Source: Coprobacillus sp. CAG:826
GTDB lineage: Bacteria; Bacillota_I; Bacilli_A; RFN20; CAG-826
Reading direction: 5' to 3'
DNA: 45,945 bases
Assembly (NCBI GenBank): GCA_000437235.1
Contig: FR897041.1
Coordinates: 20,633 to 66,577 of the forward strand
Shown here: positions 12,866 through 42,980 of the stretch, piece after piece
How positions within the stretch are numbered: the first letter of the stretch is position 1
Layout: each line of letters opens with the position of its first letter
Notes under the pieces: model-generated
What the model saw: only the letters and a program-made list of their open reading frames with translations
The model's database searches: none
Told to the model about the DNA's origin: nothing
Made by a program: the position numbers and the translations under genes

Positions 12866-13636
12866 ATGAAGACAGTACTAATTACCGGAACAAGCAGTGG
12901 AATTGGTTATGCTTTAGCTGCTTTTCTTGTAAAAAAAGGTTATCAAGTCTTTGGTCTCTCTCGAAGAGAAACCAAAATAAAAGGTGTGATTTCTATTCAT
13001 TTAGATATCACGAAACAAGAAAGCATCGAGCAAACATTAAAAGAAGTTTTGCAATATACCGATCACATCGACTATTTGATTCAAAATGCAGGTATGGGAA
13101 TTGCGGGTTCTATTGAAAATGCCACAAAAGAAGATATTGAATTACAGTTTAATACAAATCTTTTTGGACCGATTTATTTTCTTCAAGCCTGTTTAAAATA
13201 TATGAGTAAAGGTGGTCGCATCATTCATGTAGGTTCAATGGCGGGTGATTTAACTATTCCTTATCAAAGCTTTTATTCCATGTCGAAAGCGGCATTAGAT
13301 AAATTTTCGGAAGCATTATCCATGGAGTTATATGAAAAGGGAATTAAAGTCACAACCGTTTTACCAGGGGACACAAAAACCGAATTTACGAAGAATCGAA
13401 AAAAGAATATTTTAAAAGAAGAAGAAAAGGTGAATCATTCCGTTTCTAAAATGGAAAAAGATGAGCAAAAAGGCGCTTCACCCCACCAAGTTAGTAAAGT
13501 CATTTATCGCGTGATGAAAAGAAAACACCCACCCATTCGGGTAGCGGTTGGCTTTCCATATCGTCTATTTTTATTTTTAGAAAGAATATTACCCCGCAAG
13601 GCGATTTTATTTTTTATTAGGAAATTATATCGCTAG
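12866..13636 (+). CDS. Short-chain dehydrogenase/reductase (SDR) family oxidoreductase
   Basis: TGTSSGIG Rossmann motif and a YxxxK catalytic pair (YSMSK). Confidence 0.75.
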   Translation: MKTVLITGTSSGIGYALAAFLVKKGYQVFGLSRRETKIKGVISIHLDITKQESIEQTLKEVLQYTDHIDYLIQNAGMGIAGSIENATKEDIELQFNTNLFGPIYFLQACLKYMSKGGRIIHVGSMAGDLTIPYQSFYSMSKAALDKFSEALSMELYEKGIKVTTVLPGDTKTEFTKNRKKNILKEEEKVNHSVSKMEKDEQKGASPHQVSKVIYRVMKRKHPPIRVAVGFPYRLFLFLERILPRKAILFFIRKLYR

Positions 13637-13665
13637 GGTGTATAATTGAAAAAAAGGAGTTTATT

Positions 13666-14793
13666 ATGATTGAAATTAAAGAAGTAAAGGGAAGAAGAAT
13701 GTTAAAACAATTTATTGACTTCCCCACGAAGTTATATAAAGATTGTCCTTACTTTACCCCTTATTTATATGAAGATGAAGTAAATAATTTAACGCCCAAA
13801 AAGAATCCAGCTTTTTCTTATTGCGATTTTAAATTATTTTTAGCTTATCAAGATAAAAAAATTGTTGGTCGTATTTGTGGTATTATCAACCACTTCGCTA
13901 ACAATAAATATAATCAAAAACGCGTTCGTTTCAACCGTATTGATATGATTGATGATATTGAAGTCACGAAAGCTTTAATTCATGCCGTTGAAGAATTTGG
14001 TTTGGCGTACGGCATGGAAGAAATTTGTGGACCTTTAGGTTATAGTGACCAAGATAAAGAAGGTATGTTAATCAAAGGGTTTGATCAACTCAATATGTTT
14101 GTGACTTTCTATACCCATGAATATTATATTCATCATATGCAAGCCTTAGGCTTTGTTGAAGACGCTAGATGGAAAGAATATAAGATTTTCTTCCCTAAAG
14201 AAGTAGATCCTAAAATTCGTCGTTTATCAGAATTTGTGCAAAAGAAATATAAATTACATCTTCAAAAAATTCGTTCTAAACGTGAACTTAAAAAGAAAGA
14301 TATTATTGAAGTGTTAAAATTAATGAATGTTTGCTACGCAAATTTATATGGCTATGTCCCTATTGAAGAAAAACACATGATGCATTTAGCAGGAGAATAT
14401 TTTCCTTTACTTCATTTAGATTATCTTCAACTTGTACGCGATGAAAATGAAAAGCTTGTTGCTTTTGGTTTAATGATTCCAACCCCTGTTAAAGCATTAA
14501 AAAAACATAACGGACATTTATATCCTTTTGGCTTTATTGATTTCTTACATGATTTAAAACACGCAAAAGTATTAGATATGCTTTTAGTTGCCGTTGATCC
14601 CGCTTATCAATCTTCGGGTGCGATGGCAATCATCTTTGAAAAAGCCATTGAAAACGCGATTAAAAATAAAATGGAACATGCTGAAACTGGTCCAGAACTT
14701 GAATACAATGACAAAGTTCAATCGTTATGGAAATCCTTCGATCACGAATGCCATAAAGAAAGAGTGTGCTTTGTGAAAAAAATTGGTGCATAA
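13666..14793 (+). CDS. GNAT-like N-acyltransferase-fold protein of a conserved ~370-aa Firmicute family
   Basis: The N-terminal pattern (IK.V.....L..F..FP..LYKD.PY..P) and length are recalled from a family annotated as GNAT. AAGGAG RBS. Confidence 0.45.
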   Translation: MIEIKEVKGRRMLKQFIDFPTKLYKDCPYFTPYLYEDEVNNLTPKKNPAFSYCDFKLFLAYQDKKIVGRICGIINHFANNKYNQKRVRFNRIDMIDDIEVTKALIHAVEEFGLAYGMEEICGPLGYSDQDKEGMLIKGFDQLNMFVTFYTHEYYIHHMQALGFVEDARWKEYKIFFPKEVDPKIRRLSEFVQKKYKLHLQKIRSKRELKKKDIIEVLKLMNVCYANLYGYVPIEEKHMMHLAGEYFPLLHLDYLQLVRDENEKLVAFGLMIPTPVKALKKHNGHLYPFGFIDFLHDLKHAKVLDMLLVAVDPAYQSSGAMAIIFEKAIENAIKNKMEHAETGPELEYNDKVQSLWKSFDHECHKERVCFVKKIGA

Positions 14794-14814
14794 GGAAAAA
14801 TGTAGAGTGCTCTC
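14787..14814 (+). terminator. Intrinsic terminator
   Basis: atgtagag tgct ctctacat hairpin followed by T6. Confidence 0.55.
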
Positions 14815-19237: not shown

Positions 19238-21028
19238 TTATTGAATTAATCCACTATCTTTTAACCAAATTTCGGCATCGGTGCCTTTACTCTTTTTAAG
19301 GAGAATTTTTAAGAGAAGTTTTTCCTTAAAGGATAACTTTTTAACACTGGTAATTGGTTTCTTATCAAGAGCGTAATAAGAAGCGCGTAGTAATTCACGA
19401 ATATCATAAGTGCTACCCCATACTTCAGGAACAGCGCGGTCAATATTTAAAAGAGTGTAGACGGCTTCCATGCCGGTACGAATGGAATATTCCGTGGTGA
19501 AGATCGTGTCACGAGGTGTTTCGGCAAATTGACCAATAAAGGCAAAGTTTTTGGCTCCATGAGGGACAACTAAAGGACGGTCCTCATGTTTTCTTGGTTG
19601 GAAGAATGCATTAATATAAGGCATATAGCATGTAGTTGTGTTACAAGCATTTTCTGCTAATAAATCAATACGATTGATGTCAATTCCAATATGGTAAAGC
19701 CATTCTTTGCATACTTCAATACCAGTACATTTTTTCATGGGTTTCTTAACATAATTACCTTCTTTATCCGTGGACAAAGAGTAGACCCAAACTAAGACTA
19801 AATTTTTGTCTTGCGCTTTGAATTGGGGTTGACGGTTAATGGTCCATGATAAGTACCAATTATCCGTACTATCTTTTACGGTCACGATACCACCAGTAGT
19901 GACTTTTCCACTACGAGGATCACGCTTACAGATTTTCATGATATGATCAATAATTTCTTCGTTTGATGTGGCAATCGTTGCGCTCATCCAATTCGTTTTA
20001 TCGACATCTGAACAGAAGACTTCAGGATGACCATAATCACTACCTTGGGCGGCAATATTTCTCCACATATTCCAAGATTCACCAAAACCATTCTTAATCT
20101 TACTTAAATCAGGTGCATGCGTTTGATCACCATAGCAAGATGTATCTGTACAACAACCATTCGTGATAAAGACAAGATCATCTTCAACTAAATCAATCGT
20201 TTGTTCTTGGTTATCTTTTATATAAACGATTTGACGTGCAACTTTTTTACCTTCTTTTTCATCAATGATGACATTTTTTACATCGATGCCATATTCGATT
20301 TTAACGCCATGGCTCTCTAAGTATTTGACTAATGGAAGAATCATACTTTCAAATTGATTATATTTGGTAAAGCGTAGAGCAGAGAAATCAGGCAAACCAT
20401 CGATATGGTGCACATATCTTTGTAAATAGCGTTTCATCTCTAACGCGCTAGACCAACGTTGGAACGCAAACATTGTTTGCCAATAAAGCCAAAAGTTGGT
20501 TTCCCAAAATGAATCATGGAAAATTTCTGAAATTTTCTTATCTTCCAATTCTTTTTCAGGGGTCATATAAAGTTTCATTAAATCTTGAGCTGATTGTTTA
20601 TCTAATTTGAATTGTTTATCGGTATGAGCATCTTGACCTCTTTTCACAGTCGCTCTACATAAAGAGTAGTTAGGATCTTCTTTGTTGAGCCAATAGTATT
20701 CATCTAAGACACTGATGCCTTCGGTTTCAATGGATGGAACATCGCGGTACATATCCCACATACATTCAAAGTGATTATCCATTTCACGGCCACCACGCAT
20801 AAAGAATCCTTTGGTGATGTCTTTACGGCCATCGCAACTACCACCGGCTAATTCTAATTTTTCTAAAAGGTGAATGTGTTCTCCTTTCATTTGGCCATCT
20901 CTTACAAGATAGAAAGCTGCGGATAAACCAGCTAATCCAGTACCAATAATATAAGCGGATTTTTTGTCCACACCTTCGGGTTTCTTTGGATGCGCAAATG
21001 CTTCATAATTTCCTGCACTATAATACAT
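19238..21028 (-). CDS. ohyA: Oleate hydratase (FAD-dependent fatty-acid double-bond hydratase, MCRA family)
   Basis: N-terminus MYYSAGNYEAFAHPKKPEGVDKKSAYIIGTGLAGLSAAFYLVRDG carries the FAD-binding GxGxxG. Length 596 aa. AAGGAGG RBS. Confidence 0.85.
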   Translation of the reverse strand: MYYSAGNYEAFAHPKKPEGVDKKSAYIIGTGLAGLSAAFYLVRDGQMKGEHIHLLEKLELAGGSCDGRKDITKGFFMRGGREMDNHFECMWDMYRDVPSIETEGISVLDEYYWLNKEDPNYSLCRATVKRGQDAHTDKQFKLDKQSAQDLMKLYMTPEKELEDKKISEIFHDSFWETNFWLYWQTMFAFQRWSSALEMKRYLQRYVHHIDGLPDFSALRFTKYNQFESMILPLVKYLESHGVKIEYGIDVKNVIIDEKEGKKVARQIVYIKDNQEQTIDLVEDDLVFITNGCCTDTSCYGDQTHAPDLSKIKNGFGESWNMWRNIAAQGSDYGHPEVFCSDVDKTNWMSATIATSNEEIIDHIMKICKRDPRSGKVTTGGIVTVKDSTDNWYLSWTINRQPQFKAQDKNLVLVWVYSLSTDKEGNYVKKPMKKCTGIEVCKEWLYHIGIDINRIDLLAENACNTTTCYMPYINAFFQPRKHEDRPLVVPHGAKNFAFIGQFAETPRDTIFTTEYSIRTGMEAVYTLLNIDRAVPEVWGSTYDIRELLRASYYALDKKPITSVKKLSFKEKLLLKILLKKSKGTDAEIWLKDSGLIQ

Positions 21029-27388: not shown

Positions 27389-28624
27389 ATGACATTATTA
27401 GAAGAACTTAAAGCTCGCGAATTATTCTTTCAAACCACTTCGGAAGATTTTGAAAATTACTTAGAAACCCATAAGGTGACGTTCTATTTAGGTTGTGACC
27501 CAACGGGTGATTCTTTGCACGTCGGTCACTTAGTGACGTACTTAGTCGCTAAAAGATTAGAACAAAGAGGCCATCACCCCATTCTTCTTGTGGGTGGCGC
27601 GACCGGACAAATTGGTGATCCAAAACAACAAGGCGAAAGAAAAATGCTTTCTTTAGAAACCACCAATGAAAACGCTCGTAAATTAGCCCATCAAGTAGAA
27701 ACCCTCTTTGGTTTCCATACCATTGTGAATAACTTAGATTGGACGAAAAATTTAAGCGTCATTGATTTCTTACGTTTTTATGGTAAAGAATTTAACGTCA
27801 ATACCATGATCAATAAAGAAACCGTAAAGGCGCGTTTAGATAGTGGTATTTCTTATACCGAATTCTCTTACCAAATCTTACAAGCCATGGACTGGTATCA
27901 TTTATTTAAAACGATGAACTGCGAAGTACAAATTGGTGGTCAAGACCAATGGGGCAATATGACCGCAGGAACCGAGCTCATTCGTAAAAAAGAAGGTAGC
28001 GAAACCAAAGTCTATGCTATGACCATTCCTTTAATTTTAAAACCTGATGGTACGAAGTTTGGTAAATCAGAAGCGGGAAAATCCGTATGGTTAGATAAAG
28101 ATAAAACATCACCGTATGAATTCTATCAATTCTGGTTCAATCTTCCTGATAGCGATGTGATTAAAAAGATGAAACAATTTACTTTCTTATCTTTAGAAGA
28201 AATTGCAAGTATTGAAGAAGAATGGAAGAAAGCGCCTGAAACCCGATTAGCGCAAAAAACATTAGCAAGAGAAATGACGAAACTCATCCACGGACAAGAG
28301 GGCTTAGATCAAGCTTTACGTATTACCGATGCTTTATTTAAAGGGGATATTGCTTCTTTAAGTGCTAAAGAAATTGAAATGGCTTTTAGTGATTTCCCAA
28401 AAACTCACATTGAAGAAAATGCACCTTTATTAGAGACTTTAATCGCCTTAGGTGTTGCTAGTTCAAAACGAGAAGCCCGTGAATTTGTAAAGAATGGCGC
28501 CATTACCATTAATGGACAAAAGGTTACTGATGAAACCACGCTTTTAAATCCGAGCATGGCCATTGATCAACGTTTCTTAGTAGTGCGTCGTGGCAAAAAG
28601 AAATATAGTTTAGCCGAATTCTAA
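27389..28624 (+). CDS. tyrS: Tyrosine--tRNA ligase
   Basis: HIGH motif (HVGH), KMSKS-like KFGKS and a C-terminal S4 domain; 411 aa. Confidence 0.9.
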   Translation: MTLLEELKARELFFQTTSEDFENYLETHKVTFYLGCDPTGDSLHVGHLVTYLVAKRLEQRGHHPILLVGGATGQIGDPKQQGERKMLSLETTNENARKLAHQVETLFGFHTIVNNLDWTKNLSVIDFLRFYGKEFNVNTMINKETVKARLDSGISYTEFSYQILQAMDWYHLFKTMNCEVQIGGQDQWGNMTAGTELIRKKEGSETKVYAMTIPLILKPDGTKFGKSEAGKSVWLDKDKTSPYEFYQFWFNLPDSDVIKKMKQFTFLSLEEIASIEEEWKKAPETRLAQKTLAREMTKLIHGQEGLDQALRITDALFKGDIASLSAKEIEMAFSDFPKTHIEENAPLLETLIALGVASSKREAREFVKNGAITINGQKVTDETTLLNPSMAIDQRFLVVRRGKKKYSLAEF

Positions 28625-28646
28625 TTTTTCATTTTAATAAAAAACA

Positions 28647-28705
28647 AAAGAAGCTAAATATGAAAAAGTTTTAACACGAAATCAATGCATTTAGCTTCTT
28701 TTTTC
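28647..28705 (+). terminator. tyrS intrinsic terminator (long-loop hairpin)
   Basis: aaagaagctaaat ... atttagcttcttt arms followed by a T-run. Confidence 0.5.
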
Positions 28706-28737
28706 ATTGCCTTTTTTGGAAAATATAGAGAAAATAT

Positions 28738-28765
28738 TTCGAAATTGCGTCATTTTTGCTATGAT
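28738..28765 (+). promoter_or_regulatory. Extended -10 promoter upstream of the 96-aa ORF and the TIR-NACHT gene
   Basis: TTCGAA, 16-nt spacer, TGcTATGAT. Confidence 0.4.
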
Positions 28766-28790
28766 ATAAGGTGTTAAAGGAGCCGAAAAA

Positions 28791-29081
28791 ATGGAGTTTC
28801 ATTCAAATCATGAAAAGAATCAAGAAGGTAATAAAGAAACAAAGTCTTGCGGACTTTATTTTCTTCATAATCTTTTAAATGAAATTTCTAAAAAGGAAAT
28901 ATTGTTGAAGGCTTCTTTTATCAATGATAAGAAATCTTATCTTTTATATAAGTTAAATGAAGAGAATAAAAAAGAAGCAGAACCACAACTTATTCCATAT
29001 TTTTTCATCAACAAGTTGTTGCTTCTTCGCAAGATTTTATTGGACTCGTTATTGATAGTCATTATCATCCGTATAGTTTAA
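28791..29081 (+). CDS. 96-aa ORF with strong RBS; probably the authentic N-terminal exon of the downstream giant gene, separated from it by a frameshift in a T6 tract
   Basis: AGGAG RBS 8 nt upstream. The last ~25 codons (LLLLRKILLDSLLIVIIIRIV) look like out-of-frame translation. The downstream gene's reading frame is open from 28970 and gives protein-like sequence (HQQVVASSQDFIGLVIDSHYHPYSL...). A +1 T at 29000-29005 would fuse the two ORFs. Confidence 0.4.
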   Translation: MEFHSNHEKNQEGNKETKSCGLYFLHNLLNEISKKEILLKASFINDKKSYLLYKLNEENKKEAEPQLIPYFFINKLLLLRKILLDSLLIVIIIRIV

Positions 29082-29101
29082 TTTTAAAAGACAAAACATC
29101 G

Positions 29102-32100
29102 TTGTTTCAACGAGTTTTTGCTTTACCCAATTCCATAGAAAAACAATTATTATTAGGATATTGTTATGAACAAGGTGATGCAGGAGTAGTTAAAGATATT
29201 TCTAAAGCCTTTGCCTGCTTTTTAAAAGCTGCAGAGTCTAACGATGCACGTGCGCAAAATATAATTAGCTACTATTATGGAACAGGAGCAGAAGGCATCG
29301 CTATTGATTATCAAAAATCTTTCTATTATGCTTCGTTATCGGCTCAACAAAATTATGCAGTTGGTTTATTTAATTTAGGACATTGTTATGAACATGGGAC
29401 AGGAACCATTCGAAATGAAAGTAAAGCTTTTGCGCTTTATTATCAAGCGGCAATGCAAGGTTATTCTAAAGCGATGGAAAAAGTAGGCACTTATCTTTTT
29501 TATGGAACGGTGATAAAAAAAGATATCACTAGTGCTTGCTATTGGTTTCAACGCGCGGCATTAAATGGTATGGAAAATAGCTATTTATACGCTGCTTATT
29601 GTATGCTTGATAACGATATGAAAGTTCATGATATAAATACGGCCATTGAATTATTAAAACATGCTTCTTTTAAAGGCATAAAAGAGGCAGATTTAGAATT
29701 AGGTAAGATATATTATCAAAGCACCGAAATTACGCCGAATGTCTTATTAGCGTTAGACTATTTTTCTCATGCTTATCAAGAAGGTATTTTAGAAGCAGGA
29801 AAGTATATCGTTGAAATTTCGGAAAAAGATGTAAATAATGAAGAGCTTTTAAAGAAAGCCTATAACATTTTAAAAGACTTCTTAAAAAAGGAAATCGGAC
29901 AAAAAGATTTTAATGAAGAACTTTATGGCTTTGGTGCCTACCATATGGGCCTATGGCTTAAAAATGGGTGGCTAGTAAAAAAGAATGAAGAAGAGGCTTT
30001 AAGATATTTATCTTTGGCAGAACGTTTGGGCAACTATGATGCATCTTATGAAGCGAGTATTCTTTATGAAAAGAAGTTTGATTATGATGCAATGATGAAT
30101 AGCTTAAATCAAGCATTAAAAGGTTCAAAAGAAACGATTAAAAAAGCCTATTATCAATTGGGTAAACTGAATTTAGAAGGAAAAATTATAAAAAAAGATA
30201 TCGACGCAGCTTTTCGCTTTTTAGATTTATCTTTTAAAATGGGATATAGTGAAGCGGCTTATCTTTTAGCTGAAGCTTATGAAATTAGTGATGGTAAGCA
30301 TATTCCTAATTTTAAAAAAGCATTTGAAATGTATTCACATGCCGCTTATCGGTGTGATAATGCTAGAGCGTATTATAAAATGGCAGAAGCGCTTTATTAT
30401 GGCTTAGGTGTAACACCAAATGATGAACAAGCTAAAAATATGTTATTAGAAAGTCAAAAGCGTGGAGTAGAAGAAGCAGATATTCTTTTGGGAATGATGT
30501 ATTTAGAAGGAAAAGCTTATCAAAAAGATGAAGAAAAAGCTTTTTCTTGTTTTAAAAATGCTTATGAGCATCATATTCTAAGTGCTCCTTATTATTTAAG
30601 TCATTTTTATTTAAACGGAATAGTGGTTGAACAAGATATAACCTATGGCCTCGCACTTTTAAAAGAAGCAGAGGAAAATCGATTTTATCTAGCATCACAC
30701 GTTTTAGGACAAATCGATTTAGAAGGAAAGTATGTGACAAAGAATGAAGAAAGTGCCTTTAACCATTTCTTATTAGGCGCTACTTATTATGATGAAGCAT
30801 GTACTTTAGATATTGTAAAATGCTACCAGAATGGTGTTGGCGTAGAGAAAAATGAAGAGATTGCTTTTTCTTATCTTTATCAATATCATTTCCATAAAAG
30901 TCAATCTGTACTGGTAATGTATGAAATTGTTTTATGTTATTTAAAGGGTAGAGGGGTTAAAAAAGATATCGTAAAGGCAAGTTATCTTTTAAATGCAATG
31001 ATTGATAGTAAACAAAAAGAAGTGGATATATCCGAAGCGGAATTTCTTTTAGGTTACGCTTATTATACGGGGAGCATGACTTTAAGAAATCCGCCCGCTG
31101 CTTTTTATCAATTCTCTTTAGCCGCTCAAAATGAACATGTAGAAGCCATGTTTTATCTTGCAGAATGTTATGATAAAGGTACCGGTATCAGCGTAAATCA
31201 TGAAAAAGCGGTATCTTGGTATATCAAAGCGGCTGAAAAAGAACATTTAGGCGCAATGTATGAATTAGGTAATCATTATTATGATGGAATCGGCATTGAA
31301 CAAGACTATCAAAAGGCATTTTCTTATTATAAAATGGCAGCAGAAAGTGGTTATTTAAGTGCACAAGTGAGTTTAGCAGGGTGCTACGCTAACGGGGTAG
31401 GTACGATGCAAAGTTATGCTTTAGCGGCCAAATATTATGCGTTAGCTTCCCAAAAGAATCACGCTTTAGCAGAATTCCATTTAGCGGACTTGTACGAAAA
31501 TGGCTTTGGGGTAACGTTATCCTATGACTTAGCCATTGAATATTATAAAAGAGCGATAGAACATGGTTATTCTTTAGCGAAAGAATCCTTAGAAAGAGTA
31601 GAAAAGAAATTAGAATTAAAACGCTTGCAAGAAGTTGGTGTTGAACCAAGCCACGTTTTCATTTCTTGGAATCATTATTCGGAAGAACTTTCGATTCAAA
31701 TTTCTGAAATTTTAAAACAAGGCAATTTAAAAGTATGGCATAGTAATGCAAGTTGCGAAGGATTTATTAGTGAGACGTGTTTACTTGCGATAAAAAACGC
31801 AAAAACTTTCTTAGTGTTATTAAGTTTAAAAGCTATTAAAAGTGCCTATGTGCAAATGGAAGTTCAAGCGATTTATGATCGGGTAAAAAATGGAGAAATC
31901 GATATTTCTTGTATTAAAGCAATGTATGATGGTCCAGAAAATGAAATCCGTCAAGCTTTAAGTGAACTACCAAAAGAGCATCCAATGCGTATCTTTATCG
32001 ACTTTGATTTATCACCGTTATATGTGACAGAACCGCAATATATGATTGATAATATCATCAATTCGTTAACCACGGGCGCTTTTAAAACGTATCGTAATGT

Positions 32101-33745
32101 TAGACATAGAAAAACAGCCATGTTTAGTATGTTTATTTTAAACACGTTTAATTTTGATCGTTATGCGAATATGGTAGATTTAACGAGCAATATTGAAAAA
32201 GGTTACATTTCTAGAAAATTGGCGCTCTACACGAAAAAAGATGAATCTGTTTTTTATAGTGAAGAAGACTTATTGAAAAATGAGCTTTCTTTAATTGTGG
32301 CACCGGGTGGAAGAGGAAAATCCGTTTATCTACAAAATTTAGAACATCGCTTCTTTAGTCAAGATAACGCTTCTACGATTTTCTTTCGTTTTCCCTTAAC
32401 GCAGTTAAAAAATTATGTGGCGAAGCTTTCAAAAGAAGTAGATGCTGAAGATTTTATTGCTTTCTTAAAAGAAGAAGTCTTTCAAAAAGAATTAGATGAA
32501 GTGGAAAAGAATATTCCTTTCCGTAATGAAAAATTTATTCAACTTTTCCTACAAGAAAATAAACAAATTTATTTCTTATTAGACGCTATAGATGAATTAG
32601 GAAATGACCGGAAAAAATGGCTTCAAATTTTTGAAAAAATGTGGAGTGATTTTGTTTTAAAATATAACAAAAACAAATCCACGCATTTCATTTTTACTTC
32701 TCGTATTGTTGAAAAAATTCATATCGCTGAACTTTCTTCTTTAATGATATTTACCTTACCTTCCTTTAATGAAAAAGAGCAGAGAGAATTATTTGTTTCT
32801 ATTATGAATTTATTCAATGCATCGCAATTAAGAGATATGGCAAATCACCAAGAAGAAGTCACCTTATTTAGTGAGGAAGAAGATTATCCGCTTTTTCAAA
32901 AGGAAGTTGCTGAGCTCCATATTCCGATTACCTCCAATCCTTTGATTTTATGTAATTTCTTAATTCTATATTTTATGAATGCATTAGAAAATCGACCAAT
33001 GCCTAAAACTGAATATGAAATCATGATGCAATCCATTCATCTTTTAATTGATCAATTAGAAGATGAAAAGCGAATTGATTTAGATTTAAACTTAGTTTCA
33101 GCGTCTTTTTTAAATCAACATTTACGTAATATTTTAGCTTATCTTTATTTTGAAATTTTGGCTTTTGATTCAAGACCGATTGAAGATATTATTTTAGAGT
33201 ACCTTCAAGATAATGAAAAAGAAGAAGAAATTCAAAAGTTAACGATGCTAGAAAGAAAACGTTTAGCTCTTGCTTTAAAACAACATTTTATTTCTCGTAA
33301 TTTTGCAGGAGAAGGAAATATTGTTCACGCTTTGTTCGCTACTTATTTTGCTTCCGAATATTGTTATCAAGATTTAATTCAAATTACGGGCAAGGGCAAA
33401 TTAGCGCACCTTACTTTTAAAGATGAAAAAGCGAAAGAACGACTTCTTTCTTATCAAGAACAGTATTTCTCCTTGGGAGAAAACTGGATTGACGTTTTAA
33501 ATCATTTGATTTCTAAAATGCTTTATCAACTTTCTTTGTTACCGCATGAAGAAAATCTTTCGAAAGATAATTTTAATTTCTTACAAGAAGTCTTTGAAAT
33601 TCTTTATGTTCGTAATATAAATGAGAACATGAAAAAGAGTTATCGTGATATAAGAAAAATGGCGAAAGAGAAACGCTGCTACTTTGCTTCAGATGTCCTG
33701 CAACTTTTGACATTAGAAAAATTTTCTAGCGAAGAAAATAATTGA
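29102..33745 (+). CDS. Giant Sel1-like-repeat / TIR / NACHT-type STAND NTPase protein (candidate NLR-like defence protein); annotated start is a TTG without RBS
   Basis: Residues 1-830 carry about 20 Sel1-like repeats. Residues ~848-975 are TIR-like (VFISW, LVLLS, SAYVQME with the Glu at the catalytic position). Walker A APGGRGKS is at aa 1066-1074, Walker B FLLDAIDE at 1158-1165, FTSR at 1198-1201 and SNPLILC at 1278-1284, which together are NACHT hallmarks. The C-terminal ~260 aa are helical. Confidence 0.8.
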   Translation: MFQRVFALPNSIEKQLLLGYCYEQGDAGVVKDISKAFACFLKAAESNDARAQNIISYYYGTGAEGIAIDYQKSFYYASLSAQQNYAVGLFNLGHCYEHGTGTIRNESKAFALYYQAAMQGYSKAMEKVGTYLFYGTVIKKDITSACYWFQRAALNGMENSYLYAAYCMLDNDMKVHDINTAIELLKHASFKGIKEADLELGKIYYQSTEITPNVLLALDYFSHAYQEGILEAGKYIVEISEKDVNNEELLKKAYNILKDFLKKEIGQKDFNEELYGFGAYHMGLWLKNGWLVKKNEEEALRYLSLAERLGNYDASYEASILYEKKFDYDAMMNSLNQALKGSKETIKKAYYQLGKLNLEGKIIKKDIDAAFRFLDLSFKMGYSEAAYLLAEAYEISDGKHIPNFKKAFEMYSHAAYRCDNARAYYKMAEALYYGLGVTPNDEQAKNMLLESQKRGVEEADILLGMMYLEGKAYQKDEEKAFSCFKNAYEHHILSAPYYLSHFYLNGIVVEQDITYGLALLKEAEENRFYLASHVLGQIDLEGKYVTKNEESAFNHFLLGATYYDEACTLDIVKCYQNGVGVEKNEEIAFSYLYQYHFHKSQSVLVMYEIVLCYLKGRGVKKDIVKASYLLNAMIDSKQKEVDISEAEFLLGYAYYTGSMTLRNPPAAFYQFSLAAQNEHVEAMFYLAECYDKGTGISVNHEKAVSWYIKAAEKEHLGAMYELGNHYYDGIGIEQDYQKAFSYYKMAAESGYLSAQVSLAGCYANGVGTMQSYALAAKYYALASQKNHALAEFHLADLYENGFGVTLSYDLAIEYYKRAIEHGYSLAKESLERVEKKLELKRLQEVGVEPSHVFISWNHYSEELSIQISEILKQGNLKVWHSNASCEGFISETCLLAIKNAKTFLVLLSLKAIKSAYVQMEVQAIYDRVKNGEIDISCIKAMYDGPENEIRQALSELPKEHPMRIFIDFDLSPLYVTEPQYMIDNIINSLTTGAFKTYRNVRHRKTAMFSMFILNTFNFDRYANMVDLTSNIEKGYISRKLALYTKKDESVFYSEEDLLKNELSLIVAPGGRGKSVYLQNLEHRFFSQDNASTIFFRFPLTQLKNYVAKLSKEVDAEDFIAFLKEEVFQKELDEVEKNIPFRNEKFIQLFLQENKQIYFLLDAIDELGNDRKKWLQIFEKMWSDFVLKYNKNKSTHFIFTSRIVEKIHIAELSSLMIFTLPSFNEKEQRELFVSIMNLFNASQLRDMANHQEEVTLFSEEEDYPLFQKEVAELHIPITSNPLILCNFLILYFMNALENRPMPKTEYEIMMQSIHLLIDQLEDEKRIDLDLNLVSASFLNQHLRNILAYLYFEILAFDSRPIEDIILEYLQDNEKEEEIQKLTMLERKRLALALKQHFISRNFAGEGNIVHALFATYFASEYCYQDLIQITGKGKLAHLTFKDEKAKERLLSYQEQYFSLGENWIDVLNHLISKMLYQLSLLPHEENLSKDNFNFLQEVFEILYVRNINENMKKSYRDIRKMAKEKRCYFASDVLQLLTLEKFSSEENN

Positions 33746-33818
33746 ATAATGTTCAATAATATGATATTCTCTTATAGGAATTGAAAAGAATATAGTCAAT
33801 TCCAAAGGGGAAAAGAAA

Positions 33819-34397
33819 ATGAAATCGTTAAAAATTATTCAAGTCCTATGCAAAATAGGTCAAATTCTAAGTAAAATTGCTTTTATTTTATGTATTGTAG
33901 GTGCAAGTTTGAGTTTGCTAGGAATTCTATCGTTAGCTTGTGGGATTGAGACCATTGAAATTAATGGTGTGACAATTGGAAGCATGATTCAAAATGACTC
34001 AGGAATGAGTATGGGAACCATGTATACAACTTTAGCTGTCGGTATCGTTATGATGGCAGGAGAAATCGCGATTGCTAAATTTGCAGAACTTTATTTCAAA
34101 CATGAATTAATTGCTGGTACGCCTTTAACTTTAGAAGGAGCAAAAGAAATGCGCCGTTTAGGCATTTTAAAGATTGCAGTTTCTTTAGGAACATTTATAT
34201 TAGCCGCTATTGTACAAGCAATTTTAAAAGCAACATTAACTGATGTCGTTGAAGTAGATTTAGATCATTCAGGCGCTATCGTTATGGGCGTTATGTATTT
34301 AATTCTTTCTTTAGTGCTTCAATACGCTAGTGAAGAATTAAAGAATAAAGAAGAAAAAATCGAAATTTCAAGTCATCAAGAAAATGAAAAGGAGTGA
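33819..34397 (+). CDS. Small 4-TM membrane protein (possibly DUF2975-like), immediately downstream of the TIR-NACHT gene
   Basis: 192 aa with four hydrophobic helices and an acidic C-terminal tail. The RBS is purine-rich but weak (AAAGGGGAAAAGAAA, no AGGAG core) and is preceded by an 8-bp inverted repeat. Confidence 0.5.
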   Translation: MKSLKIIQVLCKIGQILSKIAFILCIVGASLSLLGILSLACGIETIEINGVTIGSMIQNDSGMSMGTMYTTLAVGIVMMAGEIAIAKFAELYFKHELIAGTPLTLEGAKEMRRLGILKIAVSLGTFILAAIVQAILKATLTDVVEVDLDHSGAIVMGVMYLILSLVLQYASEELKNKEEKIEISSHQENEKE

Positions 34398-35691: not shown

Positions 35692-35990
35692 AAACTCACC
35701 CTACTTATTGTATAAGAAAATAAAAAAAATAACTAGCGGTAAAACGTTAATTTAGAAAATGAAAAATATAGAAAATTTATCATTAGATGATTGAATGGGC
35801 AAAGTAATAATTAATGCGAACTATTGCTTTAAATGATATTTATGTTATTATTAAAATATATAAGACATATTGTGACTTTAAATAGTTAAAAAAATAAAAT
35901 AGTTAGAAGAGAAAAGTTTTTGTAATTTTAAATTTCTAGTAGGTGTTAGTGTAATATTGGCACATATTATATGAATGAGGGGGAAGAACA

Positions 35991-39804: not shown

Positions 39805-40257
39805 ATGAAAGACGAACGTTTTCAAGAAATTGTAAAAGAAAACCAAGTAAAAGAGAAGAAGGGAAAACATCTTTTATTCGCTTTCTTGGTTGGTGGATGT
39901 ATGGGCTTATTTGCGCATTTTATTTATGATATGAGTTTTCGTTATTTAGGGGCAACGAAAGAAAATGCCGGCCTTATTTCTACCAGTGTAATTATTATTC
40001 TTACCACGATTTTAACGATGACGGGAACTTATAAAAAATTAGCACGAAAATTTGGAGCCGGTTTATTCATTCCGACTTCTGGATTCGCTAACTCGATGGC
40101 ATCATCTGCGATTGAATCAAAATTTGAAGGTCCAATCTATGGCTTAGGTTCACGTATGTTTTATTTAGCGGGTAGTGTGATTACCTATGGCATTTTTAGT
40201 GCGTTTATTTACGCAGTGATTCGCTTCTTATTAAGTCTTATAGGAGTGAGCCTATGA
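39805..40257 (+). CDS. spoVAC: Stage V sporulation protein AC
   Basis: LLFAFLVGGCMGLFAHFIYD ... SGFANSMASSAIE matches SpoVAC. Confidence 0.8.
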   Translation: MKDERFQEIVKENQVKEKKGKHLLFAFLVGGCMGLFAHFIYDMSFRYLGATKENAGLISTSVIIILTTILTMTGTYKKLARKFGAGLFIPTSGFANSMASSAIESKFEGPIYGLGSRMFYLAGSVITYGIFSAFIYAVIRFLLSLIGVSL

Positions 40258-41249
40258 GTTTCCATATGAATTTTCATCATGTTTTCATCAAATCTTTTTC
40301 TTCGATTGTCGGAAAAAAAGAAAAAGAGGGACCTTATGGCGATTATTTTGATGAAAGCGTAAAAGATGATTATGTCGGAGAAAAAACATTTGAAGAAGGA
40401 GAAATTCATTTAGCTAGAAGAGCGATTGAACTAGTGTTACTTAAAGGCAAAACCGAAATTGGCGAAATTCCTCTTGTTTTTGGTGGGGATTTAAGTAATC
40501 AAATTGCCATTACTTCTAGAGTGATGAAAGATTTATCAAGCGCTGCGATTGGGGTATATAGTGCATGTGCAACCTTACCTTTAGCGTTAGGTTTAGCAGC
40601 GACGTATGTCGATAATAAGTATATTCTGCATGGTTTAGTGTTTACAAGTTCTTCTAAAAGTGTAGCGGAACGACAATTCCGTTATCCTAATGACTATGGA
40701 ATCCAAAAGAAAGATTCAAGTACGATTACAGTAACGGGCAGTGCAAGTTTTATCGTTTCTAGAGATCCATCTCCGATTCAAATTACCGGACTGACCTATG
40801 GAAAAGTGTATGATCCAAATTTAGCAAATCTAAATGATATGGGGAGTCCTATGGCTTATGCTGCATATCATACCATTAGGGATCATTTAAAGAGTCAAAA
40901 TGAAACAATGGAGGATTATGACGCAATTATTACGGGTGACTTATCTTTGATAGGTACTAAGGTTTTAAAAGCTTGTTTTAAAGAAGATGGGATTGATTTA
41001 AAAAATCATTTAGATGCGGGAAACTTAATTTTTCACCGCGAAAAAGAAAAAGTATATGCCGGTGGAAGTGGGCCTGGTTGTATTGCGGTTTTTTTAGCGG
41101 GTTATGTTTTAAAAGAAATGTTAAAAGGTACATTGAAGCGCGTTTTAATTGTCGCAACAGGTGCTTTATTTTCGCCCACCCTTTCTCAACAAAAACATTC
41201 GATTCCTGTTATCGCTCACGCGATTACCTTAGAAAGAAAAGAGGCATAG
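40254..41249 (+). CDS. spoVAD: Stage V sporulation protein AD
   Basis: 331 aa with a thiolase/KAS-like fold typical of SpoVAD. The start overlaps the spoVAC stop. Confidence 0.8.
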   Translation: MSFHMNFHHVFIKSFSSIVGKKEKEGPYGDYFDESVKDDYVGEKTFEEGEIHLARRAIELVLLKGKTEIGEIPLVFGGDLSNQIAITSRVMKDLSSAAIGVYSACATLPLALGLAATYVDNKYILHGLVFTSSSKSVAERQFRYPNDYGIQKKDSSTITVTGSASFIVSRDPSPIQITGLTYGKVYDPNLANLNDMGSPMAYAAYHTIRDHLKSQNETMEDYDAIITGDLSLIGTKVLKACFKEDGIDLKNHLDAGNLIFHREKEKVYAGGSGPGCIAVFLAGYVLKEMLKGTLKRVLIVATGALFSPTLSQQKHSIPVIAHAITLERKEA

Positions 41250-41251
41250 TT

Positions 41252-41608
41252 ATGACGTATTTATACGCATTTTTGTTTGCTGGCCTTTTAAGCTTTTTAG
41301 GACAACTACTCTATGAATATACGAAATTAACCCCCGGACATATTACGAGCATGTTCGTTGTTGTTGGGGTTTTATTAGAATCTTTTGGCATCTATGATTT
41401 CTTTTTATCTTATTGTGGAGGAGGCGCAATGACGCCGATTACCAATTTTGGTCACGTTTTAGCGCATTCCGCTATAGAAGGCGCTAAAGAAGAAGGCTTC
41501 ATGGGTATTTTAAAAGGTTTATTAAAAAACGCATCTTATGTTTTATCTTTAGTAACGGTAACCGCTACAGTAGCGGCGCTTTTAACGCGCCCTAAAGGAG
41601 ATGCCTAA
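41252..41608 (+). CDS. spoVAEb: Stage V sporulation protein AE (SpoVAEb-type)
   Basis: MTYLYAFLFAGLLSFLGQLLYEYTKLTPGHITSMFVVVGVLLESFGIYD aligns with B. subtilis SpoVAEb. The true start is the ATG at 41252 after an AGAGG RBS; the track ORF at 41078 is an out-of-context extension. Confidence 0.7.
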   Translation: MTYLYAFLFAGLLSFLGQLLYEYTKLTPGHITSMFVVVGVLLESFGIYDFFLSYCGGGAMTPITNFGHVLAHSAIEGAKEEGFMGILKGLLKNASYVLSLVTVTATVAALLTRPKGDA

Positions 41609-41609
41609 T

Positions 41610-42980
41610 ATGCGTTACGATGAGAAATTAGATTTATATTTAATGACGCAAACGCATCTATATGAAAACTTTGATGTCGTGCGTAGAGAAGTGGGGCTTG
41701 GTTTAAAAAAGGGTGTTTTGTATTATTTATCTAGCTTAGTGAATGAAGTGGCTATTACGAATTTATTAGAAGGTATCAAAGTAGCGTGGTCAGCTTCTAC
41801 AATGGAAAAAACGCTTTTTAATGGTTCGGTTTTAAAAAAAAACAATCAAGAAGAAATTCTAGATGATTTGTTTTCTGGAAATGCCATTTTATTGTTGGAA
41901 AATCTAAAATCAGCCATGGTAATTGATGTTCGTTCTTATCCCTCTAGAGCGATTAGTGAGCCGACAAGCGAACAAACGATTCGTGGCTCGAGAGATGGTT
42001 TTACCGAATCCATTAATACGAACGTTGGATTGATTCGTAGAAGAATTAAAGATACCCATTTAATGATTGAAACTTTTAACGTTTCGAAAAAAAGTGCCAT
42101 TTCTGTTGCGGTTTGTTATCTATCTGATCAAGCAGATTTAGGTATTGTTGAGGACTTAAAAAAGAAAATTCAAGAAATCGATGTGAATTCCTTAGTGATG
42201 TCTGATCGCGCTTTAGAAGAAATTTTATTTAAACAACGATTTTCGCCGTTTCCTTTAGTTCGCTATACGGAACGTCCAGATGTAGCAAGCATCAATTTAA
42301 TGAATGGAAAGATTCTTTTAATCTGCGATACTTCAGCGAGTGTCATTATTACGCCTACGACGTTTATTGATCATACCAAGCACGTTGAAGAATTTCGTCA
42401 ATCTCCCTTAATTGGTAGCTTTACAAGACTATTACGAAGTATTGCTGTTCTTTTATCGTTTTTACTTCTTCCGCTTTGGCTAGCGTTAGTTAAAACGGAT
42501 GGTTTTCATAATGGCTTAGAAATTGAAGTCACCTTACAGAATAGCCATCTTTTAGTGGTACAAATCTTTGTTGCGGAATTGATCTTTGAACTTTTGCGGA
42601 TTGCTTCCATTCATACGCCAACTCAATTAACCAGTGCCGTGGGTTTAATTGCCGCGATAGTATTATCCCAAGTTTCTTTAGACTTAGGATTATTTCTTCC
42701 TGAGATTATTTTAATGTGCGCAATTTCCGCTATTTGTGGATTTGCTACACCGAGTTATGAATTATCTATGGCCAATAAAGTTATGAAATTAATTCTTATT
42801 TTATTTGTCGCGGTGGGTGGAAAAGTAGGCTTTTTAATCGGGATAACCCTTTTATACATTTATCTATCTTGTTTAAAAACATGGGATATGCCGTATTTAT
42901 ACCCCTTCTGTCCTTTAGATACAAAAAAAGCACTCGATCTATTTTCTAGATCCAGTGCAAAGAAACGTAAGAATTTATAA
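41610..42980 (+). CDS. spoVAF: Stage V sporulation protein AF (GerA family spore germination protein)
   Basis: GerA-type N-terminal soluble domain plus a 5-TM C-terminus. Its position after spoVAE is as in Bacilli. The start is at either 41601 or 41610. Confidence 0.65.
   Translation: MRYDEKLDLYLMTQTHLYENFDVVRREVGLGLKKGVLYYLSSLVNEVAITNLLEGIKVAWSASTMEKTLFNGSVLKKNNQEEILDDLFSGNAILLLENLKSAMVIDVRSYPSRAISEPTSEQTIRGSRDGFTESINTNVGLIRRRIKDTHLMIETFNVSKKSAISVAVCYLSDQADLGIVEDLKKKIQEIDVNSLVMSDRALEEILFKQRFSPFPLVRYTERPDVASINLMNGKILLICDTSASVIITPTTFIDHTKHVEEFRQSPLIGSFTRLLRSIAVLLSFLLLPLWLALVKTDGFHNGLEIEVTLQNSHLLVVQIFVAELIFELLRIASIHTPTQLTSAVGLIAAIVLSQVSLDLGLFLPEIILMCAISAICGFATPSYELSMANKVMKLILILFVAVGGKVGFLIGITLLYIYLSCLKTWDMPYLYPFCPLDTKKALDLFSRSSAKKRKNL

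Follow-up and report, generated by a model that had tools for sequence, protein, structure and literature searches.

A homopolymer near the 5' end of a gene can set the reading frame by its length, as in the simple-sequence-repeat (SSR) phase variation of poly-G/C tracts of Campylobacter and Neisseria genes and of phase-variable restriction-modification mod genes. Short runs are also the sites of strain-specific frameshift null alleles, and an X_XXY_YYZ heptamer at the junction of overlapping frames, the downstream one in -1, marks the programmed frameshift sites of dnaX and of IS3/IS911 transposases. All three bear on a gene of Coprobacillus sp. CAG:826, a human-gut metagenomic species (assembly GCA_000437235.1), located in positions 20,633 to 66,577 of the forward strand of contig FR897041.1. 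This whole stretch of 45,945 nucleotides is called the window and its numbering is used throughout. The product of the gene resembles the bNACHT/Avs STAND proteins with TIR effectors, which unite in a single polypeptide a P-loop NTPase bearing the D[GAS]hDE motif, a TIR domain and a long alpha-helical repeat array. In the window the gene is split between two frames at a run of six T (T6), where most strains of the species have seven (T7) and one continuous open reading frame (ORF) of 1651 codons. The split is real and T6 is a derived 1-bp deletion. We privilege the hypothesis, which we consider probable, that the one-T deletion made a recent, stable and heritable null or strongly hypomorphic allele of a putative TIR/STAND defence gene.

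The locus shares with strain-specific null alleles at short runs a 1-bp deletion in a 7-base run, the intact state in the outgroup and in most strains, stable inheritance within a lineage and the lack of compensating features. It differs from typical ones in that two haplotype backgrounds carry the deletion and the 4.6-kb ORF is otherwise pristine, which argues for a lesion that is very young, recurrent or spread by recombination. With SSR phase variation it has in common a homopolymer near the 5' end that sets the frame by its length, and the presence of both states in natural populations. In contrast to those systems, the tract is made of A/T, measures 6-7 bases, is of background length and is not conserved, with two lengths only and no lineage seen in both states. 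Like dnaX and the IS3/IS911 transposases, it has a heptamer at the junction of overlapping frames and a downstream frame in -1, but no stimulator and no conserved two-frame layout, the one-frame gene being the norm. Regarding bNACHT/Avs proteins, their canonical order is an N-terminal effector, the NTPase and a C-terminal repeat sensor, whereas here about 830 aa of Sel1 repeats precede the TIR domain and the region after the NTPase is a non-repeat helical tail of about 270 aa. The protein further departs from them by the lack of a PADLOC match, by a NACHT score below the cut-off and by its housekeeping neighbourhood.

The split gene and its intact form

The elements of the split are the following:

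28738-28765, + strand: promoter-like site read directly from the sequence, with a weak -35 TTCGAA (28738-28743) and an extended -10 TGcTATGAT (28757-28765); its function is putative
28778-28793, + strand: Shine-Dalgarno (SD) sequence AGGAG (28778-28782), 8-nt spacer and native ATG of the full-length gene (ORF listing)
28791-29006, + strand: codons 1-72 of the intact gene in frame 0, encoding exactly residues 1-72 of P0003, the intact protein; only this portion of the 96-aa ORF is genuine
29000-29005, + strand: T6 run, site of the 1-bp deletion relative to the ancestral T7 by DNA alignment (context CCATA-TTTTTT-CATC)
29007-29081, + strand: out-of-frame tail of the 96-aa ORF (24 hydrophobic codons and TAA), by translation a frameshift product and not a conserved peptide
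29006-33745, + strand: rest of the gene by translation, in frame 2, codons 73-1651 of the intact protein; the annotated part is the 1547-aa ORF from TTG 29102

The 96-aa ORF (28791-29081, ATG start, frame 0) reads ...EAEPQLIPYFF and then, straight after Y70-F71-F72, INKLLLLRKILLDSLLIVIIIRIV to its stop. Frame 2 is open from 28970, being preceded by a TAA at 28967-28969, and reads ...YSIFFHQQVVASSQDFIGLVIDSHYHPYSLILKDKTSLFQRVF... and ...FFHQQVVASSQDFIGLVIDSHYHPYSLILKDKTSLFQRVF...; its earliest start-type codon is TTG 29102, giving a 1547-aa ORF that ends at 33745. No GGAG-like or other SD sequence is found ahead of this TTG, which lies inside a small 6-bp hairpin (29099-29113). The sequence and its ORFs bear out the initial annotation, made from the letters alone, on the T6 run, the 96-aa ORF, the opening of frame 2 and the TTG lacking an SD. 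Translation and homologue conservation do the same for its opposition of a hydrophobic frame-0 tail after T6 to a protein-like frame 2. It had also placed the only good promoter and ribosome-binding site ahead of the 96-aa ORF: these signals are there, and they are identical in the relative Bacillales bacterium UBA7581 (locus L014), while its term "well-expressed" follows from the signals only. The promoter is not listed by an automatic consensus scan because its -35 matches only 3/6 bases.

A protein search gave a 1651-aa protein, P0003, matching the frame-2 translation with 99% identity. Its N-terminus, MEFHS...LIPYFFHQQVVASSQDF..., is exactly the predicted fusion, and DNA alignment shows that its contig (L007) has one extra T, T7 versus the T6 of the window. 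The neighbours are those of the window, with 2-hydroxyacid dehydrogenases and tyrS upstream and a 192-aa ORF and rsmF downstream. The joined sequence ...EAEPQLIPYFF-HQQVVASSQDF... that the initial annotation obtained by adding one T therefore exists, as an exact protein and as T7 DNA at the same locus; the continuity of the protein holds, its length being 1651 aa instead of about 1658. T7 and a contiguous 1651-aa ORF are found at this locus in six fetched conspecific loci (L007, L010-L012, L015, L016). The 15 members listed of a 193-member cluster at 90% identity include at least 13 different sequences of 1651 aa, which occur on at least 35 contigs. UBA7581, identified in a scan of GTDB genomes, has 93% amino acid identity, T7 and a contiguous ORF of 1649 aa. 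ATG 28791 is the start of the long ORF in all seven of these loci.

When the 149-aa fused N-terminus served as the first protein query, the hits were limited to the 96-aa cluster and one fragment; owing to a word-index limit the 1651-aa protein escaped this search and came up only with a long query. A variable-gap pattern of the tract gave one unrelated chance match (L013) in the JGI metagenomes and none in the GTDB genomes, where the species representative differs in the flanks; a protein query then recovered this representative.

An exhaustive search with the TIR-NACHT region as query revealed 69 relatives, nearly all long proteins with this module at the C-terminus. The closest ones, P0092 (53% identity, 1636 aa) and P0093 (45% identity, 1432 aa), are each encoded by a single ORF, and P0093 is syntenic, lying directly behind 2-Hacid_dh and tyrS. 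Both keep the stretch that the window encodes in frame 2 at 29006-29101, with the pattern QV.S..DFI..VI....NPF in which V77, S79, F83, V87 and P94 are invariant, and both carry 70-90 additional residues on its N-terminal side. The initial annotation had held two orthologue patterns against a frameshift, conserved N-termini at the TTG or an equivalent position and two separate genes; none of the orthologues compared starts at TTG 29102 or carries two genes, and all have the contiguous ORF. Since T7 alleles and orthologues are single ORFs that keep the segment upstream of the TTG, translation does not natively begin at this codon, the 96-aa ORF does not constitute a separate gene, and T7 is the ancestral state. 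The intact T7 form is also the majority state.

The whole 1651-codon frame is under purifying selection. The ratio of non-synonymous to synonymous substitution rates (dN/dS) between the window and UBA7581 is 0.105 for the joined frame, 0.11 for the Sel1 part, 0.08 for the TIR-NACHT part and 0.13 for codons 1-72 (6 synonymous and 4 non-synonymous changes). The 24-codon junction segment has 2 synonymous and 3 non-synonymous changes in either frame, too few to tell the frames apart by dN/dS; its frame was for this reason judged from conservation in distant homologues.

T6 in other assemblies

The initial annotation had left room for a sequencing or assembly error, the genome being truly T7 and the T6 of the window a homopolymer miscall. 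Homopolymer indels are a classic class of error and the CAG:826 reference is a metagenome-derived assembly. Against this, 9 contigs have a call for the exact 96-aa product, which depends on T6, and 3 more for a one-residue variant (P0001), about 12 in all. The runs behind these contigs differ, and their assemblies, taken from ENA, NCBI and Logan, were made by at least three pipelines (MEGAHIT-style k127, SPAdes-style NODE, scaffolds, Logan). At the DNA level, T6 is present in nine sequences (the window, L001-L006, L008 and L009) and T7 in seven loci (the six conspecific ones and L014). T6 tracks the haplotype, including a private single-nucleotide polymorphism (SNP) at 29053, and not the pipeline. 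In a spot check of the window, two other sets of overlapping ORFs (five ORFs) proved to be different, complete genes, and no further split gene was found among them. An artefact is thus highly improbable, and the error option of the initial annotation is refuted.

The overlaps examined in this spot check, 7211-7987/7935-8759 and 40254-41249/41078-41608, are over-extended starts of separate genes and not frameshifts; the idea that they betray an error-prone assembly was rejected on this ground. One T6 contig, L002 (ERZ1314856 NODE_861, coverage about 2.7x), has in its segment 2506-7149 two nearby non-synonymous changes relative to the window, YYG to SYC, equivalent to window positions 30396 and 30401. 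Given the low coverage they may be assembly noise instead of true variation.

Domains of the intact protein

The intact 1651-aa protein is cytoplasmic. It opens with an N-terminal segment of about 104 aa, followed by a Sel1-repeat stretch of about 830 aa, then by the TIR domain, the STAND NTPase of NACHT type and a C-terminal region that is helical. The "TIR-NACHT body" of the initial annotation was correct for the TIR and NACHT-like regions and incomplete in omitting the Sel1 repeats ahead of them. The domains map as follows:

29130-31580, + strand: Sel1-repeat array of about 830 aa (Pfam Sel1, 305.8 bits, E 5e-94; boundaries approximate)
31655-31912, + strand: TIR domain, fused residues ~956-1041, with FISWNH and Glu1024 (Pfam TIR_2, 31.6 bits against a cut-off of 28)
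32282-32797, + strand: NACHT-type STAND NTPase core with Walker A GGRGKS (K1177), Walker B/signature LLDAIDE (1263-1269) and TSR (Pfam and invariant motifs)

The TIR_2 model scores 36-49 bits in relatives. E1024 (...SAYVQMEVQ...) is invariant in a 14-sequence alignment of the family and is a candidate for the equivalent of the catalytic Glu of characterised TIR NADases. The NTPase region of this protein scores below the cut-off with Pfam NACHT (PF05729; 18.1 bits versus 26.7) and likewise with NPHP3_N (21.9 bits), and the homologues P0097 (41.1 bits) and P0099 (28.3 bits) are above the NACHT cut-off. GGRGKS (K1177) and LLDAIDE (D1265, D1268, E1269) are invariant across the 14 family members; the NACHT signature, defined as D[GAS]hDE (bioRxiv 10.1101/2022.07.19.500537), takes the form DAIDE in the window. 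Every family-invariant residue is kept by the window: FISWNH, E1024, GGRGKS/K1177, LLDAIDE, TSR, NPL and H1513.

Sel1 arrays stand ahead of the TIR-NACHT module in 6 of the 7 relatives scanned, and this Sel1-TIR-NACHT family is sizeable and uncharacterised. Sequence searches gave no PADLOC model, no informative NCBIfam family and no solved PDB relative, only sub-threshold hits driven by Sel1. Its gene sits between the housekeeping genes tyrS and rsmF and not within a defence island. By analogy with bNACHT/Avs proteins and TIR NADases, we suggest that the protein is a putative anti-phage or conflict sensor, whose ligand-triggered oligomerisation would activate cleavage of NAD+ by the TIR domain.

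Haplotypes and origin of the deletion

T6 is found in two lineages. Lineage A comprises the window and L001-L006, which are 0-2 SNPs apart over 4955 nt and have T6 in all sampled contigs; the nearest T7 allele, L015, has 20 differences. Lineage B (L008 and L009) shows 56 differences per 4955 nt from lineage A and only 10 from the T7 alleles L010/L011, and is identical to L011 across tyrS. The marker at 28641 (A), adjoining the tract, is common to both T6 lineages: L008 differs there from L011 and matches lineage A. The marker at 29053, downstream of the tract, is private to lineage A. Judged from these sequences, two deletions, or one deletion and a patch of homologous recombination, would account equally for the two backgrounds; a single deletion spread by recombination fits because the haplotype table is mosaic and the 28641 marker is shared.

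Across 7 kb, the 10 haplotypes of the species that were compared show no indel other than the T run. The T6 allele has no other indel or stop and retains the family-invariant residues; since secondary lesions are lacking and all invariant TIR and NACHT residues are kept, the lesion is recent.

The region from tyrS to the 192-aa ORF (27389-34397), compared with loci L007-L016, is a recombination mosaic among strains. For example, L008 equals L011 in tyrS, yet L011 equals L010 in the big gene. The 3' third of this gene comprises two deeply split haplogroups, with 38-39 differences per 1545 nt, and its 5' third has 3-8 per 1710 nt.

Tract length and phase variation

The initial annotation had also left room for a phase-variable switch of a potentially toxic TIR/NTPase gene. 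In its full form, the T tract would be hypermutable and would, inside a lineage, turn a gene that is costly or autotoxic reversibly ON (T7) and OFF (T6). Such a switch would account for the occurrence of both lengths in nature, with T6 on two divergent backgrounds, and for the T run as the only indel of the region. It would also suit a tract near the 5' end, so that OFF is a clean null, and a downstream ORF undamaged in all T6 alleles. Tracts of 7 bases can phase-vary in some bacteria, as reported for the 7C tract of M. tuberculosis glpK (bioRxiv 10.1101/717272).

The tract itself is short and not exceptional for its surroundings. For the 46-kb window (34% GC), a first-order Markov model predicts 203 homopolymers of 6 or more bases and 81 of 7 or more, where 216 and 68 are observed; the intact gene holds 3 runs of at least 7 versus about 11 expected. 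The T6/T7 run is thus of background length, and only its place is beyond chance, namely the exact point at which a single conserved gene passes from one frame to the other. More distant orthologues do not keep the run: the homologous site is T4 in P0092 and T5 in P0093, and the other A7/T7/T8 runs of these two genes are not homologous to it. T7 is kept in UBA7581, where it is accounted for by Tyr-Phe-Phe codons in an AT-rich genome.

Only two tract lengths were seen, and no T5 or T8 product was found in the first protein search with the 149-aa fused N-terminus. Exact look-ups in about 15 billion proteins gave neither T7 versions of the two T6 haplotypes nor T6 (1547-aa) versions of four T7 haplotypes. 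Lineage A, nearly devoid of SNPs, is uniformly T6, and no haplotype was seen in both states among its 2-9 sampled contigs; in so mosaic a population, the two backgrounds are just as well explained if a single deletion was spread by recombination. Reversible switching is on these grounds unlikely and finds no positive support beyond the T6/T7 polymorphism itself. A slightly lower chance is given to its fullest form, that the T tract is a working contingency locus by which a human-gut spore-forming Firmicute toggles the Sel1-TIR-NACHT gene, the two T6 backgrounds being independent OFF events. If true, it would be a moderately interesting case of a commensal that phase-varies an NLR-like defence gene of the abortive-infection type, OFF being selected when the gene is costly or autotoxic.

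Expression of the T6 allele

Of the options of the initial annotation, the pseudogene is thus the one favoured, in the form of a null allele. Replication slippage would have dropped one T from TAT TTT TTT (Tyr70-Phe71-Phe72), converting T7 to T6. Translation begun at the only good initiation site (AGGAG-N8-ATG, 28791) would quit the frame of the gene after Phe72 and stop 24 codons on, giving a peptide of 96 aa whose hydrophobic tail is meaningless. The other 1579 codons, although intact, would be left devoid of a ribosome-binding site, their first start-type codon being the SD-less TTG. Little or no TIR-NACHT protein would be expected, and a TTG-initiated product would miss the conserved N-terminal segment. 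Expression is therefore predicted to be lost or strongly reduced in the T6 strain.

Two ways of making protein from the split gene were considered. In the first, the T6 allele would be decoded to full length by programmed -1 frameshifting or by transcriptional slippage. The T6 run and the following C form the canonical frame-0 heptamer T_TTT_TTC (29000-29006) at the junction of the frames, and a -1 shift there yields exactly the ...YFFHQQ of P0003. However, most strains and all orthologues have the gene in a single frame, so that conservation of the two-frame layout is lacking. Six T's are too few for efficient slippage of RNA polymerase. No SD-like element is found upstream of the heptamer and no stimulatory structure downstream: the 94 nt of 29007-29100 have a minimum free energy of -10.3 kcal/mol, no better than shuffled sequences (z = +0.25), and this segment was rejected as a frameshift stimulator. 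In E. coli, heptamers that lack a stimulator reach only 2-10 times the background of about 0.05% (PMC4066793). Recoding would be expected to give trace full-length protein at most in T6 strains, and as a source of the complete product it is most improbable.

In the second, a functional two-gene layout, the 1547-aa protein would be made from TTG 29102, perhaps by termination-reinitiation, and would work deprived of its N-terminal 104 residues. The stop of the 96-aa ORF is 20 nt upstream of this TTG, and the 1547-aa ORF, open in both T6 lineages, retains all Sel1, TIR and NACHT elements; a recent mutation would, however, leave the frame open in any case. The start codon, a TTG, has no SD and is inside a small hairpin, the lost part includes a segment conserved down to relatives of 45% identity, and no orthologue starts there. 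We regard this layout as quite doubtful, if less so than recoding.

Several points weigh against a plain null allele. T6 on two backgrounds could mean recurrent mutation at a hot spot, as a contingency locus would show. That each haplotype was seen in one tract state only is a weak negative, the sampling being 2-9 contigs per haplotype. Several T6 runs come from overlapping MetaHIT-era cohorts and may not represent independent hosts. Re-initiation at the TTG or low-level -1 slippage on T_TTT_TTC could still give some protein. The undamaged 1547-codon frame in both T6 lineages hints at more than a dead gene, and a very recent lesion would look alike.

Neighbouring genes

One further ORF lies directly downstream:

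33819-34397, + strand: 192-aa ORF with no family match

This ORF has no match in Pfam, PADLOC or NCBIfam. It is found at all loci of the species and in UBA7581, there as a 205-aa ORF with a TTG start. At the syntenic orthologue locus (L018/L019) an ABC transporter takes its place; since it is not kept there, the 192-aa ORF is probably an unrelated neighbour and not part of the system. Just past tyrS (28649-28704) stands an inverted repeat of 11 bp, AGAAGCTAAAT...ATTTAGCTTCT, with a T run after it; the 29-nt loop of this repeat explains its absence from the terminator scan. The repeat probably serves as the terminator of tyrS, in which case the Sel1-TIR-NACHT gene would have a promoter to itself. 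In L007, a 1.84-kb segment (12956-14796) between rsmF and a 171-aa ORF replaces about 217 nt of the window (35745-35961) and encodes a 489-aa ORF with no Pfam match. It represents strain-variable gene content about 2 kb from the Sel1-TIR-NACHT gene. Genes for SpoVAD, SpoVAC/EB and GerA, of sporulation and germination, are found at 39805-42980 and identify the organism as a spore-former.

Significance

A strain-specific frameshift at a short mononucleotide run is a well-known kind of event and no new mechanism is opened here. The database entries CDD92123.1 ("unknown", 96 aa) and CDD92124.1 ("sel1 repeat protein", 1547 aa, TTG start) are artefacts of one frameshift; in the corrected gene model the true product has 1651 aa, and the 96-aa "orphan" is not a gene family. 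With the T6 allele present in a minority of the strains, co-circulating members of a single gut species would differ in whether they have a working copy of a putative TIR/STAND immune gene, which fits the general picture of defence genes as costly and often lost. The two alleles provide natural ON/OFF states for probing the uncharacterised Sel1-TIR-NACHT architecture, shared by about 70 cluster representatives.

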